Assembly: GCA_963721805.1 (NCBI GenBank)
Contig: CAVRJY010000002.1
Coordinates: forward strand, 64,001-128,000
Source: Nitrospirota bacterium
GTDB lineage: Bacteria; Nitrospirota; Thermodesulfovibrionia; Thermodesulfovibrionales; JdFR-86
Direction of reading: 5' to 3'
DNA length: 64,000 bases
The position numbers and the translations under genes are program-made. Below are positions 24,906 to 34,108 of this stretch, piece by piece. The first letter of the stretch is position 1, and every line of letters begins with the position of its first letter. Under the pieces are notes generated by a model. The model was given only the letters and a program-made list of their open reading frames with translations, was not told where the DNA came from and searched no databases.

Positions 24906-24963
24906 AAAGCCAGTGCAGCCATTTTCTAATTAATGGGCCTCTTTCCCTATGATATAATTGCCA

Positions 24964-26355
24964 ATGGCTGCCGATAAAGGTCTCTTAAGGAAGCTCCCCA
25001 AGGTGGACGACCTGCTGAAGGCCGCCGGGGGGCTGATCGCACGATACCCGAGGCGCTACGTCCTCGACGCGATCCGCTCGACTATAGAGGCCCGGCGCGC
25101 CGATATCCTCGCTGGCAACAAAGTAGACCTCTCCCCCGATGCGATCATGCCTGAGGTCGAGGCCGCGGTCGAGGGGATGTGGGCCCTGAGCCTCGTGCCG
25201 GTTATCAACGCCACCGGCATCGTCATCCATACCAACCTCGGCCGCTCGCCGTTGAGCGAGGCCGCGATAGAGAACGTCGTGAGGGCCAGCCGGGGGTACT
25301 CGAACCTCGAATACGATATCGAACGCGGCGAGCGCGGCGAGCGCTACAGCCACATCACGCGCCTGCTTCAGGAGACGACCGGGGCCGAGGACGGCATCGC
25401 GGTCAACAACAACGCGGCCGCGGTGCTCGTCTGCCTGAGCGCGCTCGCGCGCGGCCGCGAGGTCGTGGTATCGCGAGGCGAGCTGGTCGAGATCGGCGGC
25501 TCGTTCCGCATCCCGGACGTCATGGCCCAAAGCGGCGCGGTCCTTCGCGAGGTCGGCTCTACGAACAAGACGCACCTTGGCGACTACGAGCGCGCGGTCA
25601 ACGAAAACACCGCGCTCATCCTCAAGGTCCACCAGTCGAACTACCGCATCACCGGCTTCACGTCCGAGGTCTCGATCCCGGAGCTCGTCGCGCTTGGGGC
25701 CAGAAACGGCATCCCTGTGATGCACGACCTCGGCAGCGGCTGCCTCATCGAGCTTGCCGGCCACGGCATGCCCGGCGAGCCCTCGGTGCGCGAGGTAGTT
25801 AAGTGTTGCCCGGATAAATCCGGCCCCGATATAGTCACCTTCAGCGGGGACAAGCTATTGGGCGGCCCGCAGGCCGGGCTGATCGTTGGGGCAAAGAGAT
25901 ACATCGACGGGATACGCAGGCACCCGCTGCTGCGTGCGGTGCGCATAGACAAGCTCACTCTGGCCGCCTTGGAGGCGACCCTGCGCGCGTATATCGACGA
26001 GGACGCAGCGCTTCGAGAGATCCCGGCGCTACGCATGCTCTTGGAGCCTTCCGAGTCCGTGAGGCTGAGGGCGCAGAAGCTCAGCCGCATGCTGAAGGGG
26101 GTCGCGGCGCGCGTCGTGGAGGACGAGACATACTCCGGCGGCGGCGCGCTCCCGATGCAGAAGGTGCGGTCGTGGGCCGTGGCGATACCGCCCGAGGGGG
26201 GGCTTTCGGTCAACGCGCTTGAACTTAAGTTGCGCACAGGCGAGCCGCACGTAATCGCGCGCATAAGCGGCGACGCGCTCCTGCTTAACATGCGCACCGT
26301 CCCGGACGCGGAGCTGGCGCCGCTGGCCGCGCGGGTCAGGGAGGCCCTGGGATGA
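24964..26355 (+). CDS. selA: L-seryl-tRNA(Sec) selenium transferase
   Basis: VINATGIVIHTNLGRSPL, YSNLEYD, VNNNAAAV, SRGELVEIGGSFRIPDVM, FSGDKLLGGPQAG. Confidence 0.97.
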   Translation: MAADKGLLRKLPKVDDLLKAAGGLIARYPRRYVLDAIRSTIEARRADILAGNKVDLSPDAIMPEVEAAVEGMWALSLVPVINATGIVIHTNLGRSPLSEAAIENVVRASRGYSNLEYDIERGERGERYSHITRLLQETTGAEDGIAVNNNAAAVLVCLSALARGREVVVSRGELVEIGGSFRIPDVMAQSGAVLREVGSTNKTHLGDYERAVNENTALILKVHQSNYRITGFTSEVSIPELVALGARNGIPVMHDLGSGCLIELAGHGMPGEPSVREVVKCCPDKSGPDIVTFSGDKLLGGPQAGLIVGAKRYIDGIRRHPLLRAVRIDKLTLAALEATLRAYIDEDAALREIPALRMLLEPSESVRLRAQKLSRMLKGVAARVVEDETYSGGGALPMQKVRSWAVAIPPEGGLSVNALELKLRTGEPHVIARISGDALLLNMRTVPDAELAPLAARVREALG

Positions 26356-28178: not shown

Positions 28179-29493
28179 ATGATCGCACGCTATACGAGGA
28201 CCGAGATGGGCAGGCTCTGGGAGCTTGAAAACAAATACCGCACGTGGCTCGACGTAGAGCTGGCGGCCTGCGAGGCATGGGCCAGCCACGGCGAGATCCC
28301 AAAGGAAGCCCTCCGCGAGATCAAAAAGACCGCGGCCTTCAACGTCGAGCGCATCGAGGAGATAGAGGCCGAGGTCAAGCACGACGTGATCGCCTTCCTC
28401 ACCTCGGTGGCCGAGTACGTCGGCCCGGACAGCAGGTATATCCACAAGGGGCTCACGTCATCGGACGTCGTCGATACCGCGACCTCGATCCTGATGCGTC
28501 AGGCCTCGGACATCATCATACAGGACCTCGGCGAGCTCCTCGACGTGCTAAAGCGCCAGGCCTTCGCCCATAAAGACACGGTCTGCATAGGCCGGAGCCA
28601 CGGCGTTCACGCCGAGCCGATGGTCTTCGGGCTCAAGTTCGCGCTGTGGTATGAGGACATGAGGCGCAACCTCTGCCGCATGGAGCGCGCCCGTGAGGTC
28701 ATAAGCGTGGGCAAGCTCTCCGGGGCCGTGGGGACGTTTTCGAACATCCCGCCGGCGATAGAGGAGAAGGTGTTAAAGAAGCTCGGCCTCGCGCCCGAGC
28801 CGGTCGCCACGCAGGTAGTCCAGCGCGACCGCCACGCCGAATACATGACCACGCTGGCGCTGATCGCGGCCGGGATAGAGAAGATCTCGATAGAACTCCG
28901 CCACCTCCAGCGCACGGAGGTCCTCGAGGCCGAGGAGCCGTTTAGCAAGGGCCAGAAGGGATCCTCCGCGATGCCGCACAAGCGCAACCCGATAGGGGCC
29001 GAGAACCTCTCCGGCCTGTCGCGCATCGTGCGCACCAATGCCATAGCCGCGCTTGAGTCCGTCGCGCTCTGGCACGAGCGCGACATATCGCACTCCTCGG
29101 TCGAGCGCGTCATCATCCCAGACAGCACGATACTGGTCGACTACATGCTCGTGCGGCTGCGCGGCATCCTCGACGGGCTGCTCGTCTACCCGGAGCGAAT
29201 GAAGAAGAACATGGACGCCTCGTTCGGGCTTTATAACTCTCAGCGCGTGATGCTCGCGCTTGATCGCCAAGGGCATGACGCGCGAGGACGCTTACGCCCT
29301 CGTGCAGCGCAACGCGATGGCCGCCTGGAAGCAGAAGAAGGACTTCCAGCTGCTGCTCGACAAAGACCGCGAGGTCAGAAAGCATATGAGCAAGGACGAG
29401 CTGAAGTCCGCGTTCGACCTGCAGCCGTACCTGAAGAACATAGGATACATCTATAAACGCGTGTTCGGGGGCCGCCTGGCCCATCGCGCTTAA
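28179..29493 (+). CDS. purB: Adenylosuccinate lyase (frameshift near 29260)
   Basis: [28 protein letters not shown]-terminus [13 protein letters not shown] continues in another frame. Confidence 0.95.
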
Positions 29494-29550
29494 TAACATC
29501 AGCGCCCTGTTGTTTCGGGCGGACTCAGCGAGTTGAAAGGACATGCCGGT

Positions 29551-29958
29551 ATGGGCGGTATCAAGCTGACGACTTTCAGGTGCGGCACCGGGAGGACTCC
29601 CGGCGAGGGGCTGCGCATAGGAACCGTGCGGTATCTCCCGCGCGGAGTCAAGAAAGAAAACTACGCCAAGGAAAACTTCTTCGACGTCTGGCTCCCGATC
29701 GTCGCGCCATCGAGGGAGCTGCTGACCGAGTTCAAGAAGCACGACATAAACGACCCCAAGACACTGGAGACGTTCTTCGGCCGGTACGAGCACGAGATGA
29801 AAAACAGCACCGACGCCAGACAGACGATCCACCTGCTTGCCGCTGTTGCCGCGGAGACGCCGATAGCCATTGGCTGCTATTGCGAGGACGAGAGCCAGTG
29901 CCACCGGATCGTGCTTAAGCGGATCATCCACGAGGTCTCCAAAGGGCAATGGGCATGA
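29551..29958 (+). CDS. DUF488 (YeaO-like) family protein
   Basis: GLRIGTVRYLPRGVKKE, VAPSRELL, CYCEDESQCHR. Confidence 0.8.
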   Translation: MGGIKLTTFRCGTGRTPGEGLRIGTVRYLPRGVKKENYAKENFFDVWLPIVAPSRELLTEFKKHDINDPKTLETFFGRYEHEMKNSTDARQTIHLLAAVAAETPIAIGCYCEDESQCHRIVLKRIIHEVSKGQWA

Positions 29959-30551
29959 GACGCACGCTCTGGATAGCACTCGCGTTGCTCATCTGCGCCA
30001 TGATGTCCGGCGAGGCCAGCGCCGCGCGCACCGCCGAGGTGAGGCCGAAGGAGTTAGTGGTGCATAAGCGCGCCTCGGCCGCATCCCCTGTGCTTACGAG
30101 GCTCATGACCGGGCAGAGGGTGGTCGTGCAATCCGAGGCCTCGGGCTGGTGCCGGATCTCGGTGCCCGGCGGGAAGAAGCCCATCGGCTACGTGCCATGC
30201 GACGCCTTGCAAACCCCATCCGCGCCGCAGCCGGCCGCATCCGTGCCGGCCGCGCCTCAGCAGCTCGCCTCGCTGCCCGCCCCGGGTCCGCGCCCGTATT
30301 CGGACATCACCGTGAAGCTTTACATGGCCGACTGGTGAGGGTACTGCAAGAGGGCGCGTGCGTTCCTCAAGGGCCTTGGGGTGAAGGTCGTGGAATATAA
30401 CATCGAGAAGGACGAGGCAGCAGCCGAGCGCCATCGCGCGCTCGGGGGCCGTGGCGTGCCCCTGATCGACGTCGAGGGCATTATCATCCCCGGCTACGGA
30501 GAGGACGAGGTAAAAGCTGCGATCGAGAAACGCTCCAGGGAACCTAAATAG
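29955..30551 (+). CDS. Exported SH3b + glutaredoxin (NrdH-like) selenoprotein; in-frame TGA at 30336-30338 read as Sec
   Basis: Signal peptide, SH3-like domain, Pro/Ala linker, then KLYMADW-U-GYCKRARAFL...GGRGVPLIDVEG; frame stays open to TAG at 30549-30551. Confidence 0.85.
30350..30368 (+). promoter_or_regulatory. Putative bacterial SECIS hairpin
   Basis: GAGGGCGC-GT-GCGTTCCTC begins 11 nt after the UGA, with G in the apical region. Confidence 0.65.
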
Positions 30552-31915
30552 TAAAAGTTATCCTGAACTCCGTCCCGCGCTCCCTGCTTATCCGCACCGC
30601 GCCGCCGATCTGTCCGACGAGCGACCGTATGATCACGAGCCCGAGGGATTTCGAGCTCTCCAGATCCACCTCGGGCGGAAGCCCGATGCCGGTATCCCTG
30701 ACGGCCAGCTCGTATGCGCAATCGCCCGCGGACCTGAGCGAGACGCTCAGCTCACCGCCCGCCTCGCCGGGGAAAGCGTGCTTCAGCGCGTTTGAGACGA
30801 GCTCGTTTACGATCAGCCCCAGCGGTATGACGGTATCGACGTCGAGCATGACGTCTTCTATGTCGCAGCTAAGCGTCACGGCCCTCGTGTCGTCGTCATA
30901 GGCGTCGAAGACCAGGGCCGCGAGGTCGCGGAAATATTTTGATGCGTCTACCTTCGAGGTGCCGCCGGCGTCCTGCAGGATCTGGTGTATCATCGATATG
31001 CTCTTGACCCGGTTTCTGGCGTCGATGAGGTAGCCCTTCGAGAGCTTGTCGTCGACGTTTGCGAGCTGCGACGAAAGCAGACTCTGCACTATCGCGAGGT
31101 TGTTCTTGACCCTGTGGTGTATTTCCCTGATGAGCATCTCTTTCTCGTCGAGCGACCTGCGGAGCTCGGCCTCCATCCGGTGGACGGCCTCGTACGCGGC
31201 CTCCATGTTGCTGAAGATCGACCGCCAGTAGGTCTGCTGCCTCCTGCCCTCGGCCATGAGCCCGAGGCACTTGCACAGCAGGTCGCGCGCCTCGCCGCCC
31301 TGCAACGTCAGGTCCGGCGGGCAGGCGTCCGCTGCCAGGAGCGCGTTTACGCGTGCTCCGCCATGGCCGTGGAACCTGATCCTGAAGAAGTCCCTGTTGT
31401 CGCCGTTGTCGACCTCGATCAGGTCGAGGTCCATCGCGGCCGACATCCCGCCGAGGATGATCCCCCGTTCGAGGTCGCGGTTAAACGGGGTTGTGCTGCG
31501 CACGAGCGCGGTGCCGGCCCTGTTCGTCGATCGAGACGAGGCTGAAGTTGCCGAGCATCGCCTCGGGGCCGCGCACGACGCTGCGGTATCCGTCCGAGCC
31601 GCCCTGGAAGCGGAGGAAGTCCACGCCGCTTTTTATGAGCTCGCGGCCTGGGCCGAAGTTATACCAGTTGTCCATCATGCTCTGGCCGATCCGCTCGAGG
31701 ATCGGCTCGGGGTCGCGGTATTTCTCGACCACGATCCCCTGGAGCTCGAAGAGCACCTTAAGCGGATACCAGCCCGTGACGCTGATGTCCTGTATGATAT
31801 CGTCGACCGCGCCGCCGGCGATAATCTGGAGGTTCACGCTGGAAGTGACGAACCCGTATAGCAGCGCGCCCAGCACCTCGAGCCCGGCATAGTCCTTTTG
31901 AGGGCTATTGTCCAT
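30544..31915 (-). CDS. HisKA_2 sensor kinase with an uncharacterised (V4R-like?) N-terminal domain (frameshift near 31520)
   Basis: REIHHRVKNNL, NELVSNALKHAFP, DTGIG, SLGL; N-terminal part in ORF 31481-31915. Confidence 0.8.
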
Positions 31916-32534
31916 AGACCTCCGCCGAGAAGAAGTTCTCGGCCTTTTCGCGCCCTATGGTGGTGGCCGGGCCGTGGCCCGGCAGCACGGCCGTATCGTC
32001 AGGCAGCGACATGAGCCTCTTGTACGACTGCTTTGAGCTTCTGCCATGCTGCCGCCGGGGAAGTCCGTCCTGCCGACCGAGCCCATGAAGAGCGTGTCTC
32101 CGGTGAGCACGACGCCCTGCGCATAGAGGCTGATGCTGCCGGGGCTGTGGCCCGGAGTGTGGATTACGGTGAAGGACAGCTCTCCGGCGTCGACCGTGTC
32201 GCCTTCTTTCAGGAGCACGTCGGGCGGGGGCATCGCGGGCATCTTGTACCCCCACATCGCGCCCTGCTCCGTGACGGCCGCGTACATCTCGCTGCTCGTC
32301 GCGGTGCAGGGCCAGCTTCGCGCCGGTCTTCTCCTTGAGCGCGGGCACCGCGCCCACGTGGTCGAAGTGGCCGTGCGTGAGCACGATCATGCGGACGTCG
32401 AGCCCCTCGATGGCCTCTTCAATGGTATCGGGGTCGTCGCCGGGGTCCACGATTATCGCCTTGCCGGTCGCCTCGTCGGCCAGTATGTAGCAGTTGACCT
32501 CAAGCGGCCCGGTCTGCACGCTGGTTACGATCAT
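31905..32534 (-). CDS. MBL-fold metallo-hydrolase (YcbL/GloB-like), frameshifted
   Basis: [44 protein letters not shown] spread across frames. Confidence 0.88.
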
Positions 32535-34108
32535 CCGTTTGCTCTCCCGGAGAATTTTCTCTTTGCCGCCGCGAGCAGGAAATCGAACTCGTCGCTGCGA
32601 AGCAGCCTGCTTGCGCCCGCGTATACCGCGGCGCACAGTATAATCGTACCACACAGCCAGAGCGCCTTCACGGCCGAGTGGCCCGGGGCCTCCCATATGC
32701 GGGCCGCGCACCACGGCCCACGCCAGGGCGCCCATCACGGCCGAGGCCAGCGCGGAGCGCGCGACCGAGATGAGCGTCCCGCGCGCCCCGATGCCCCCGA
32801 GCTGGCGGCGCAGCAGATAAAACAGCACGCTGAAGTTGAGCATCGAGGCCAGCGCGTTTGCGAGCGCCAGGCCGTCGTGCTTCATCGGGCCCATCAGGGC
32901 GAGGCTCAGGACGATGTTCGCCCCCAGCGCGCAGGCGGCCACCATCACCGGGGTCCGCGTGTTCTGCATCGAATAGAACGTGGCCACGACGACGCGCACG
33001 CCGACGTACGCCCATATCCCGAGCGAATAGTACAGAAGCGCGCTCGCGGTGCCGAGCGTCGCGGCGTGGTCGAACCTCCCGCGCTCGAAGAGCATGTTTA
33101 TGATCGGCACCCGAAGCGCGATGAGCCCGGCCATCGCGGGCAGGCAGATAAACAGCAGCAGCCGGAGCGCGAACGCGAAGTCCTCCTTGAGCTTGCCGTA
33201 CTCGCGCCGCGCGGCGTGGCCCGAAAGCGAGGGCAGCACGGCCGTGCTCATCGCCACGCCGAAAACCCCGATGGGAAACTGCGCGAGCCGCATCGAGTAA
33301 AACAGGTACGTGATGCTGCCCTCGTGCAGGTACGAGGCCATGATGTTGCTGACCACGGTGTTGAGCTGCGCCACGGCCATCCCGACCGTGGCCGGCAGGA
33401 CGAGCTTCAGTATCTTGATGAGGCCCGGGTGCCGCAGGTCGCTGCTCAGGCTCAGGCTGTAGCCCTCGCGCCGGAACGCCGGGTGCTGTATCGCGAACTG
33501 CACCATGCCGCCGAGCACGACCCCGAGCGCCACCGCTGTAAGCGGGTCGACCCCCTGCCATCGAGAGCCCGACCATCGTGACGATGATCGCGACGTTAAG
33601 CGCGGCCGGGGCGAGCGCCGGGATGAAGAACACGCGCCTGCACGTTCAGCGCGCCCATCTGCAGCGCCGCGAGGCTGATGAACAGCAGGAAGGGCATCAT
33701 GATGCGCGTGAGCGCCACGGTGGTCGCGAACTTCTCCGGCTGCCCGGCGAAGCCCGGCGCTATCAGGGCTACTACGGCCGGGGCGAACACGATGCCAGCG
33801 ATACATACCGCCCCGGCCGCGATCAGTATGAACGTAAAGCACGACCTCACGACGTTTTTGGACTCGGCGGGGTTGGTGGCCTCGTACTCAGAGAGCACCG
33901 GGATCACGGCCGCGGACATCGAGCCCTCGGCGAAGAGGTCGCGCATGAGGTTCGGCACCCGGAAGGCGACGAAGAACGTGTCCGAGAGCCCGGTGGCGCC
34001 AAGGTAAAACGCGATCAGCATGTCGCGCATGTACCCCAGCACGCGGCTGATCATCGTCGCCGCGGACATCACGCCCGCGGCCCGCGCGATTTTCCCTTGT
34101 TCGCTCAT
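32531..34108 (-). CDS. murJ: Lipid II flippase MurJ, several frameshifts
   Basis: SRVLGYMRD, AFRVPNLMRDLFAEGSMS, RLAQFPIGVFGVA, FERGRF, HDGLALA. Confidence 0.93.

Follow-up and report, generated by a model that had tools for sequence, protein, structure and literature searches.

This paper describes a gene at positions 29955 to 30551 on the forward strand of a 64,000-nucleotide stretch of DNA from a Nitrospirota bacterium of the order Thermodesulfovibrionales (GenBank assembly GCA_963721805.1, contig CAVRJY010000002.1, positions 64,001 to 128,000), referred to throughout as the window. The gene is interrupted by a TGA codon. The overall best explanation, which we consider probable, is that 29955–30551 forms a single intact gene whose product is an exported selenoprotein. 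The identity of this gene as that of an exported selenocysteine (Sec) glutaredoxin is very likely, and the apparent stop is almost certainly decoded as Sec.

The frame comprises 198 codons followed by a TAG terminator (30549–30551), with an alternative ATG at 29949. It contains a single in-frame stop, the TGA at 30336–30338 (+), as read in the assembled sequence. The surrounding sequence is TACATGGCCGACTGG TGA GGG TAC TGC, in codons CTT TAC ATG GCC GAC TGG TGA GGG TAC TGC AAG. With translation table 11, the open reading frame (ORF) covers 29949–30338 and terminates at ...KLYMADW, and the public gene call (P0002) also stops here, at Trp127, with the product labelled as a bare SH3 protein. If TGA is translated as Sec (U), the product is 198 residues long, and its single recoded position, U128, falls within the sequence W-U-G-Y-C. 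U128, assigned from the frame and from the homologue alignment described below, is the N-terminal residue of a U-G-Y-C site, and the TGC for the putative resolving cysteine, Cys131 (30345–30347, +), is nearly invariant, being conserved in at least 90% of 45 aligned sequences. After the U-G-Y-C the protein continues as KRARAFL...VEYNIEKD...GGRGVPLIDVEG up to the TAG, where the gene overlaps by 8 nt a convergent ORF on the minus strand (30544–31503) that encodes a histidine kinase (HisKA_2 plus HATPase_c). An earlier reading of this DNA, referred to here as the original prediction, had placed the TGA at the first Cys position of the motif and had let the frame run on to the convergent gene, and it was right in both respects.

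The C-terminal domain is a glutaredoxin (Grx), covering residues 119–195 (30309–30539, +). The Pfam Glutaredoxin family (PF00462) matches residues 120–175 with 52.2 bits (E 6.9e-14, cut-off 22.9), and the match crosses the TGA. An AlphaFold2 model generated from a 45-sequence alignment has a mean predicted local distance difference test (pLDDT) score of 83, rising to 96–98 in the Grx domain. In this model a helix at residues 129–141 follows directly after U128, so that U128-G-Y-C131 stands at the start of helix 1, and P169, in the cis-Pro loop (V-P), is invariant in the 45 sequences. The Pfam score, the CxxC-type site and the V-P loop agree in making the domain a glutaredoxin. Foldseek finds that the nearest solved folds to this part are small dithiol Grx or NrdH-type proteins, namely 7c10, BC3987, 1h75 and an Archaeoglobus Grx. 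The domain had been called NrdH/glutaredoxin in the original prediction; the second half of that name stands and the first is not supported, NrdH-redoxin (TIGR02194) scoring 21.3 bits against a cut-off of 85.75. Mycoredoxin (TIGR02200) is also far below its cut-off, with 44.5 bits against 89.5. The UXX-star selenoproteins (NF041212 and relatives) were rejected as well; they score 32.1 bits against 66 and have Sec three residues before the C-terminus, whereas here it lies 70 codons before the stop.

Three segments precede the Grx domain. The N-terminus reads MRR / TLWIALALLICAMM / SGEASA|ART, which by inspection has the basic n-region, hydrophobic core and A-S-A site of a predicted Sec-type (general secretory) signal peptide, MRRTLWIALALLICAMMSGEASA (29955–30023, +), with putative cleavage after A-S-A. 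AlphaFold2 places a helix at residues 2–17, and the best 13-residue hydropathy window is 2.69. A strongly hydrophobic N-terminal 13-mer is found in 48 of 49 homologues, the exception being L035, which has only 29 codons open upstream; these features fit the signal peptide of the original prediction. Because of the RR pair near the N-terminus of the predicted protein, the twin-arginine (Tat) export route or an uncleaved N-terminal anchor may apply instead of a cleaved Sec-type signal. The signal peptide is followed by an SH3b (SH3_3) module at residues 34–81 (30054–30197, +), carrying the Cys pair C66/C82. This module too had been predicted, and it passes the Pfam threshold narrowly (PF08239, 29.6 bits against 27); it is modelled by AlphaFold2 with strands at 32–34, 56–60, 65–69 and 78–81 (pLDDT 56–88). 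A Pro/Ala-rich linker of low pLDDT (60–73), residues 86–117 (30210–30305, +), connects it to the Grx domain.

When 317 genomes of the order were searched in six frames, 47 gave matches, the window's own genome included. One genome (G007) matches in the SH3b part only, and 50 Grx loci from 46 genomes were re-aligned. At the Sec position, TGA is found in 24 of the 50 and a Cys codon in 26 (17 TGC, 8 TGT, and L067, a WCPYC read by eye), which answers the check proposed with the original prediction, a search for homologues with Cys or TGA at this codon. Five GTDB families, with 23 genomes between them, supply the TGA forms, and in every one the frame runs on through a full Grx domain. An in-frame UGA is therefore aligned with the Cys of homologues, with conserved sequence on both sides, as is characteristic of a Sec/Cys pair. 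A glutaredoxin match across the TGA, together with TGA at the same codon in 24 of 50 loci, goes beyond chance. In addition, the protein calls of two metagenome relatives of the SH3b subtype, P0003 (78% identical, 128 aa) and P0067 (50%, 141 aa), also finish at this Trp and are likewise labelled as bare SH3 proteins.

A maximum-likelihood tree of the family (82 columns) needs seven Sec/Cys changes, of which well-supported branches force one, so that the number and direction of the switches are not settled by the tree. It is worth adding that one of the TGA forms, L059:431-961 (+) (G316:C71), reads T-U-P-Y-A at the active site, without the Trp and the resolving Cys; judged from this sequence, its product may be a single-selenol variant.

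Downstream of the TGA there is a candidate bacterial selenocysteine insertion sequence (SECIS) hairpin at 30350–30368 (+). It starts 11 nt past the UGA, where the original prediction had put it, and has 7 bp, one bulged U and the loop CGUG (30357–30360), with a folding energy of -7.4 kcal/mol. The bacterial SECIS model, as described in PMC13188914 (Fig. 2 legend), has a loop of 3–9 nt with a G in the first two loop positions, a distance from UGA to loop of 16–37 nt, and a minimum free energy (MFE) of -7.5 kcal/mol or lower. The loop size, the G followed by U early in the loop, the 18-nt spacing and the 7-bp stem with its single bulge in the window hairpin fit this model, but the energy narrowly misses the limit. 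The register that is conserved in the family is one nucleotide off the window hairpin, at 30352–30367 with the loop GUGC.

The MFE does not distinguish TGA from Cys forms (Mann–Whitney p 0.17), and since folding energy is uninformative, the conservation of base pairs in register was used as evidence for a SECIS. The helix considered has six pairs, columns 16–19 with 30–33 and 21–22 with 27–28, where the U of the UGA is column 1. The TGA forms have on average 5.1 of the six pairs, and the helix is complete in 12 of 22 distinct sequences; the Cys forms average 3.3 and are complete in none of 24. The window retains five of the six. In the TGA alignment 85.6% of cells are paired, with a covariation of 0.310, a result matched by 0 of 500 shuffles, while slid controls give 36–56%. 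The same structure applied to the Cys alignment gives 55.6%, and 495 of 500 shuffles are at least as high. Column pair 21–28 of the TGA forms is C-G in 7, G-C in 5 and G-U in 6, as expected of compensatory changes. A caveat to all of these figures is that the structure was read off the same, related sequences on which it was scored. Five TGA forms (L048, L054 and L060–L062) have a shifted hairpin. Within the window's genome, selD and Sec-msrA are also followed by hairpins, at similar distances from the TGA. Rfam has no RNA family match at the locus. Its one match in the whole window is a cobalamin riboswitch (RF00174, 11614–11756, minus strand, 38.1 bits, gathering score 31.5).

The Sec insertion machinery of the genome is complete. 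It includes selB (380 bits, cut-off 242), selD (356 bits, itself with an in-frame TGA), a tRNA-Sec with anticodon TCA (71 bits) and selA, and the check on selB, selC and selD that had been suggested earlier thus has a positive outcome. selA, encoding L-seryl-tRNA(Sec) selenium transferase (TIGR00474, 576 bits against a cut-off of 268), lies within the window at 24958–26355 (+). This is 3.6 kb before the start of the selenoprotein gene, in agreement with the original prediction; selA does not share an operon with that gene and is context only.

There are two other ways to account for the TGA. One is that it is a true stop, so that a recent TGY-to-TGA nonsense mutation would have turned the locus into a pseudogene, or into a gene for an SH3b protein of 127 residues, the Grx frame being a decaying relic. 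The other is that it is an assembly or base-calling error for TGC or TGT, and that the protein belongs to the ordinary Cys forms of the exported SH3b-Grx subfamily. A number of observations count against a selenoprotein gene, and some of them suit one or other of these explanations. In none of the 10 other genomes that share its GTDB family was the gene found. The hairpin energy is 0.1 kcal/mol short of the -7.5 limit of the SECIS model; the local RNA is unexceptional in stability (z -0.37, with 64 of 200 shuffles at least as stable), and the segment +10 to +48 after the UGA has z +0.98 relative to shuffles. In the family tree the window's row is joined by a long, unresolved branch, which makes its placement unreliable. 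For the protein, no NCBIfam model scores above its curated cut-off; the best, the YruB-family glutaredoxin-like TIGR02196 (65.2 bits against 88.55), is a resemblance only. The SH3_3 match exceeds its cut-off by only 2.6 bits, in a part of the model with moderate pLDDT, and a survey of 126 flanking ORFs from 48 loci revealed none that is conserved across the family. Finally, the accuracy of the assembly has to be considered. Upstream, purB (28179–29493, +) is split, with Lyase_1/TIGR00928 positions 1–371 in the frame of 28179–29456 and the ADSL_C C-terminus in another frame (29260–29493), by a frameshift or an assembly indel. Downstream, an MBL-fold hydrolase gene (31905–32600, −) is split between Lactamase_B positions 2–96 and 99–171, which lie in different frames, and the 645-aa ORF 31905–33842 looks like a run-on of several frames. 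These two splits suggest indel errors in the assembly, and with at least two frame-split genes within 2 kb its base accuracy is imperfect; alternatively, such genes could be genuine pseudogenes, which would favour a true stop, as would the gene calls that end at Trp127.

A true stop nevertheless has to contend with the 70 intact codons that follow it, which complete a confidently modelled Grx domain, and with the 23 other loci in which this codon is TGA and the frame beyond it is open over its full length. A recent mutation offers no explanation of why two relatives so far diverged (78% and 50% identity) end at this very residue. The conserved hairpin pairs of the window and the full Sec machinery of the genome also speak against it, and we regard it as very improbable. 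A base error draws some support from the existence of Cys forms with the same architecture and WCGYC (P0057, P0062 and P0064) as well as from the split genes. The visible errors in the assembly are however changes of frame, while a substitution that keeps the frame would be needed here; in the independent assemblies that gave P0003 and P0067 the stop is again at this residue; and the hairpin has pairs of the TGA type, five of six against the Cys-form mean of 3.3. This explanation we consider slightly less probable still. A selenoprotein gene with a recoded TGA thus remains the preferred interpretation.

Glutaredoxin-fold proteins are usually regarded as cytoplasmic. The Grx domain of the window is however a member of a large exported family, whose proteins have a signal peptide or anchor, a variable N-terminal module, a linker, and a Grx domain with Y-x-T-x-W-[C/U]-[PG]-Y-C. 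The usual N-terminal module is DUF4124. Cys forms occur in Pseudomonas, Methylophilaceae, Geobacteraceae, Nitrospirota metagenome-assembled genomes and others, according to a contig scan whose motif pattern could return Cys forms only. A metagenome scan with a single protein gave 12 loci, and the 7 that were translated are all Cys forms and none of the SH3b type: five are of DUF4124 type and two or three of a short cytoplasmic type. Among the Cys loci of the order, L068 (G046:C13:57200-61125) has two near-identical short exported Cys-Grx genes 2.8 kb apart, which enclose one gene for a papain-family peptidase and one for a caspase-domain (Peptidase_C14) protein.

SH3b-Grx proteins were sought in a full scan of 1.8 billion representatives, which, counting full-length matches in a single stretch, found the signal-SH3b-Grx architecture with Cys in at least nine clusters (P0054, P0056, P0057, P0059, P0060, P0062, P0064, P0119 and P0129). 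Members of the Sec type are L030 (a TGA form in G272, with 39% identity over residues 10–194), P0003 and P0067. The original prediction had described both the location and the domain fusion as unusual. Both are less unusual than that, since exported Grx-domain proteins are widespread, the fusion exists with Cys in the clusters just listed, and exported UxxC selenoproteins (DsbA-like, DsbG-like) are already in reviews.

The SH3b-Grx subfamily conserves W65, C66, Y79-V80 and C82. The C66/C82 pair is present in 13 of 14 members, and in the fourteenth, P0060, both residues are Ser. Because P0060 lacks C82 as well as C66, the pair fits a structural disulfide of the SH3b module, which would in turn place the protein outside the cytoplasm. 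More broadly, the conservation pattern suggests either a disulfide or a second redox pair beside the U-x-x-C site.

Textbooks already cover this class of enzyme, the UxxC logic and the mechanism of recoding. Four reviews (PMC13188914, PMC9312934, PMC1794560, PMC1088965) list Grx (PF00462, UxxC) among the verified bacterial selenoproteins, and DsbA-like, DsbG-like and thiol:disulfide interchange proteins among the predicted ones. These last are also extracytoplasmic thiol oxidoreductases with Sec in place of the first Cys of CxxC; they belong to other subfamilies of the fold, none of which the window protein matches above cut-off. One of the closest known systems is Sec-Grx1 of Clostridium (Alkaliphilus) oremlandii OhILAs, which is reported to reduce the Sec-MsrA of that organism (Kim et al. 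2011, as cited in PMC13188914 and PMC9312934). Like the protein described here, it has a small Grx fold with Sec first in UxxC, and a Sec-MsrA is also found in the window's genome. It differs in having a single domain, whereas in the window protein the Grx domain is preceded by a signal peptide, SH3b module and linker. To our knowledge, the known Sec-Grx enzymes are all single-domain and cytoplasmic. The nearest solved fold, 7c10 ('dithiol cGrx1'), which we take to be the Cys version of the C. oremlandii enzyme, has a template modelling (TM) score of 0.91 on the target and a root-mean-square deviation of 1.0; sequence identity is low (phmmer E 5.9e-5).

The best sequence match in the PDB is Rv3198.1, a mycoredoxin-like protein of M. 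tuberculosis (PDB 2lqo, E 4.8e-6), with an identical W-C-G-Y-C. NrdH-redoxin (PDB 1h75) has a similar fold, with a TM score of 0.83. Both differ from the window protein in standing alone. Relatives within the exported family to which the window's Grx domain belongs are uncharacterised DUF4124-Grx proteins, annotated as 'glutaredoxin' or 'DUF4124 domain-containing protein'. These share the order of signal peptide, variable N-terminal module with linker, and Grx, as well as Y-x-T-x-W-C-[PG]-Y-C and G-V-P-x-I-D-V-E-G, and are 45–64% identical over the Grx part. The named records differ in having Cys for Sec and DUF4124 for SH3b. In the main text of the four reviews 'signal peptide' does not occur. 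'Periplasm', looked for in three of them, is absent from PMC13188914 and PMC1794560 and occurs in PMC9312934 only for selenite reduction; 'SH3' is absent from the text of PMC13188914, the sole review checked for it. A full-text search, supplements apart, gave no literature that joins DUF4124 with glutaredoxin, and a literature search gave nothing relevant on bacterial glutaredoxin-like selenoproteins with a signal peptide. The Sec form of the exported Grx family and its SH3b-fused subtype are thus undescribed in the searchable literature.

The genes around the locus vary. In the window, the selenoprotein gene is immediately preceded by a gene of the DUF488-N3a family ('active subclade') at 29533–29958 (+), whose TGA stop overlaps the ATG at 29955 (ATGA); the two genes are probably co-transcribed. 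This pairing is absent from the other 47 loci examined. Elsewhere there are clade-specific neighbours: a rhodanese and a redoxin in the genera g11 and g106, SmpB in g39, and an HD-domain gene in g41. In the g11 and g106 loci (e.g. L022, L023, L033 and L055), rhodanese, Grx and AhpC/TSA-redoxin genes follow one another on one strand, with the Grx of L033 (g106) being a Cys form.

At L022:997-1389 (+), in g11, the rhodanese is a small exported protein encoded upstream of the exported Sec-Grx, and the same rhodanese is found in L023, L039, L043, L045, L053, L055, L056 and L058. The g11 protein begins with a signal peptide. Its frame contains a TGA, in ...FYCRGxxU-G-L-S..., beyond which some 38 further codons are conserved, and from this pattern it is probably a further selenoprotein that is cut short in annotation. 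The redoxin encoded 3' of the g11 Grx gene, on the same strand, is TlpA-like, with WCxEC and a signal peptide. The window's genome has an orthologue of the rhodanese, 47% identical, elsewhere in the genome, together with two DsbD_TM/CcdA-type genes and a second Grx, which is signal-less.

The genome also encodes a Sec-MsrA (G000 C1:533238-534053; L071:1318-2136) with the active site G-U-F-W-G and an N-terminal hydrophobic anchor. Orthologues with TGA (at least 143 bits) are found in 52 of the 317 genomes of the order. They occur in 18 of the 46 genomes with an exported Grx and in 34 of the 271 others; counted by genus, in 11 of 19 with the exported Grx and 20 of 103 without; and in 11 of the 23 genomes with a Sec-form Grx. 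Sec-MsrA is absent from 28 of the 46 Grx-family genomes; the co-occurrence is an association and not a rule, confounded by kinship and by general use of Sec.

The computations above give the signals for recoding, the order of domains and the fold; the steps that follow are our proposal for how the protein might work. SelB with Sec-tRNA(Sec) would bind the hairpin and insert Sec128. The signal peptide would lead the unfolded chain through the secretory translocon and be cleaved after A-S-A (Ala23). The SH3b module, stabilised by a C66–C82 disulfide, would tether the enzyme to the cell wall or to a partner, and the flexible Pro/Ala linker would give the Grx domain reach to its substrates. The Grx domain would function as an extracytoplasmic thiol/disulfide (or selenylsulfide) reductase, in which the selenolate of Sec128 attacks a disulfide, sulfenate or selenenate of the substrate and Cys131 resolves the mixed bond. 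The oxidised U-C pair could then be re-reduced by a membrane electron shuttle, for which the two CcdA/DsbD-type proteins of the genome are candidates. The membrane-anchored Sec-MsrA that this genome encodes is one candidate substrate.

We put the chance that the Grx domain works in the direction of reduction at about even. The main competitor is a genuine exported Sec enzyme that acts as an oxidant or isomerase (DsbA- or DsbC-like), or as a carrier of sulfur or selenium, and not as a reductase fed by CcdA. The order rhodanese-Grx-redoxin in the g11 and g106 loci is in its favour, as is the g11 rhodanese with its signal peptide and its in-frame TGA in CRGxxU, of which the window genome has the orthologue noted above; the window's own gene, however, has no such neighbours. 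Moreover, it is reductases, and not strong oxidants, that typically have a CPYC/CGYC motif and Sec as the attacking residue. We see an oxidant or carrier as a rather unlikely alternative, though one to be taken seriously. For a reductase, a partnership with the membrane-anchored Sec-MsrA is a speculative idea with little chance of being correct, and the same low expectation applies to the full scheme of an extracytoplasmic selenium-based repair relay, running from a CcdA-type shuttle through a wall-tethered Sec-glutaredoxin to the anchored Sec-MsrA. If true, the relay would be the extracytoplasmic counterpart of the Sec-Grx/Sec-MsrA tandem of Clostridium oremlandii, and the g11-type operon with its Sec-rhodanese and TlpA-like redoxin would extend it to sulfur and selenium trafficking.

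The 24 loci with TGA in this one order are all mis-called in the same way, ending at the recoded codon, and because no NCBIfam model reaches its cut-off the subfamily will keep being truncated in annotation. A specialist would be interested but not surprised, since so much of the background is established. The finding is mainly of use for correcting the annotation and for drawing attention to the envelope of these anaerobes as a possible site of selenium-based redox chemistry. The presence of an exported Grx family, many of whose members have switched to Sec, in anaerobes that also export Sec-MsrA and Sec-rhodanese points to a redox chemistry of the cell envelope that depends on selenium.

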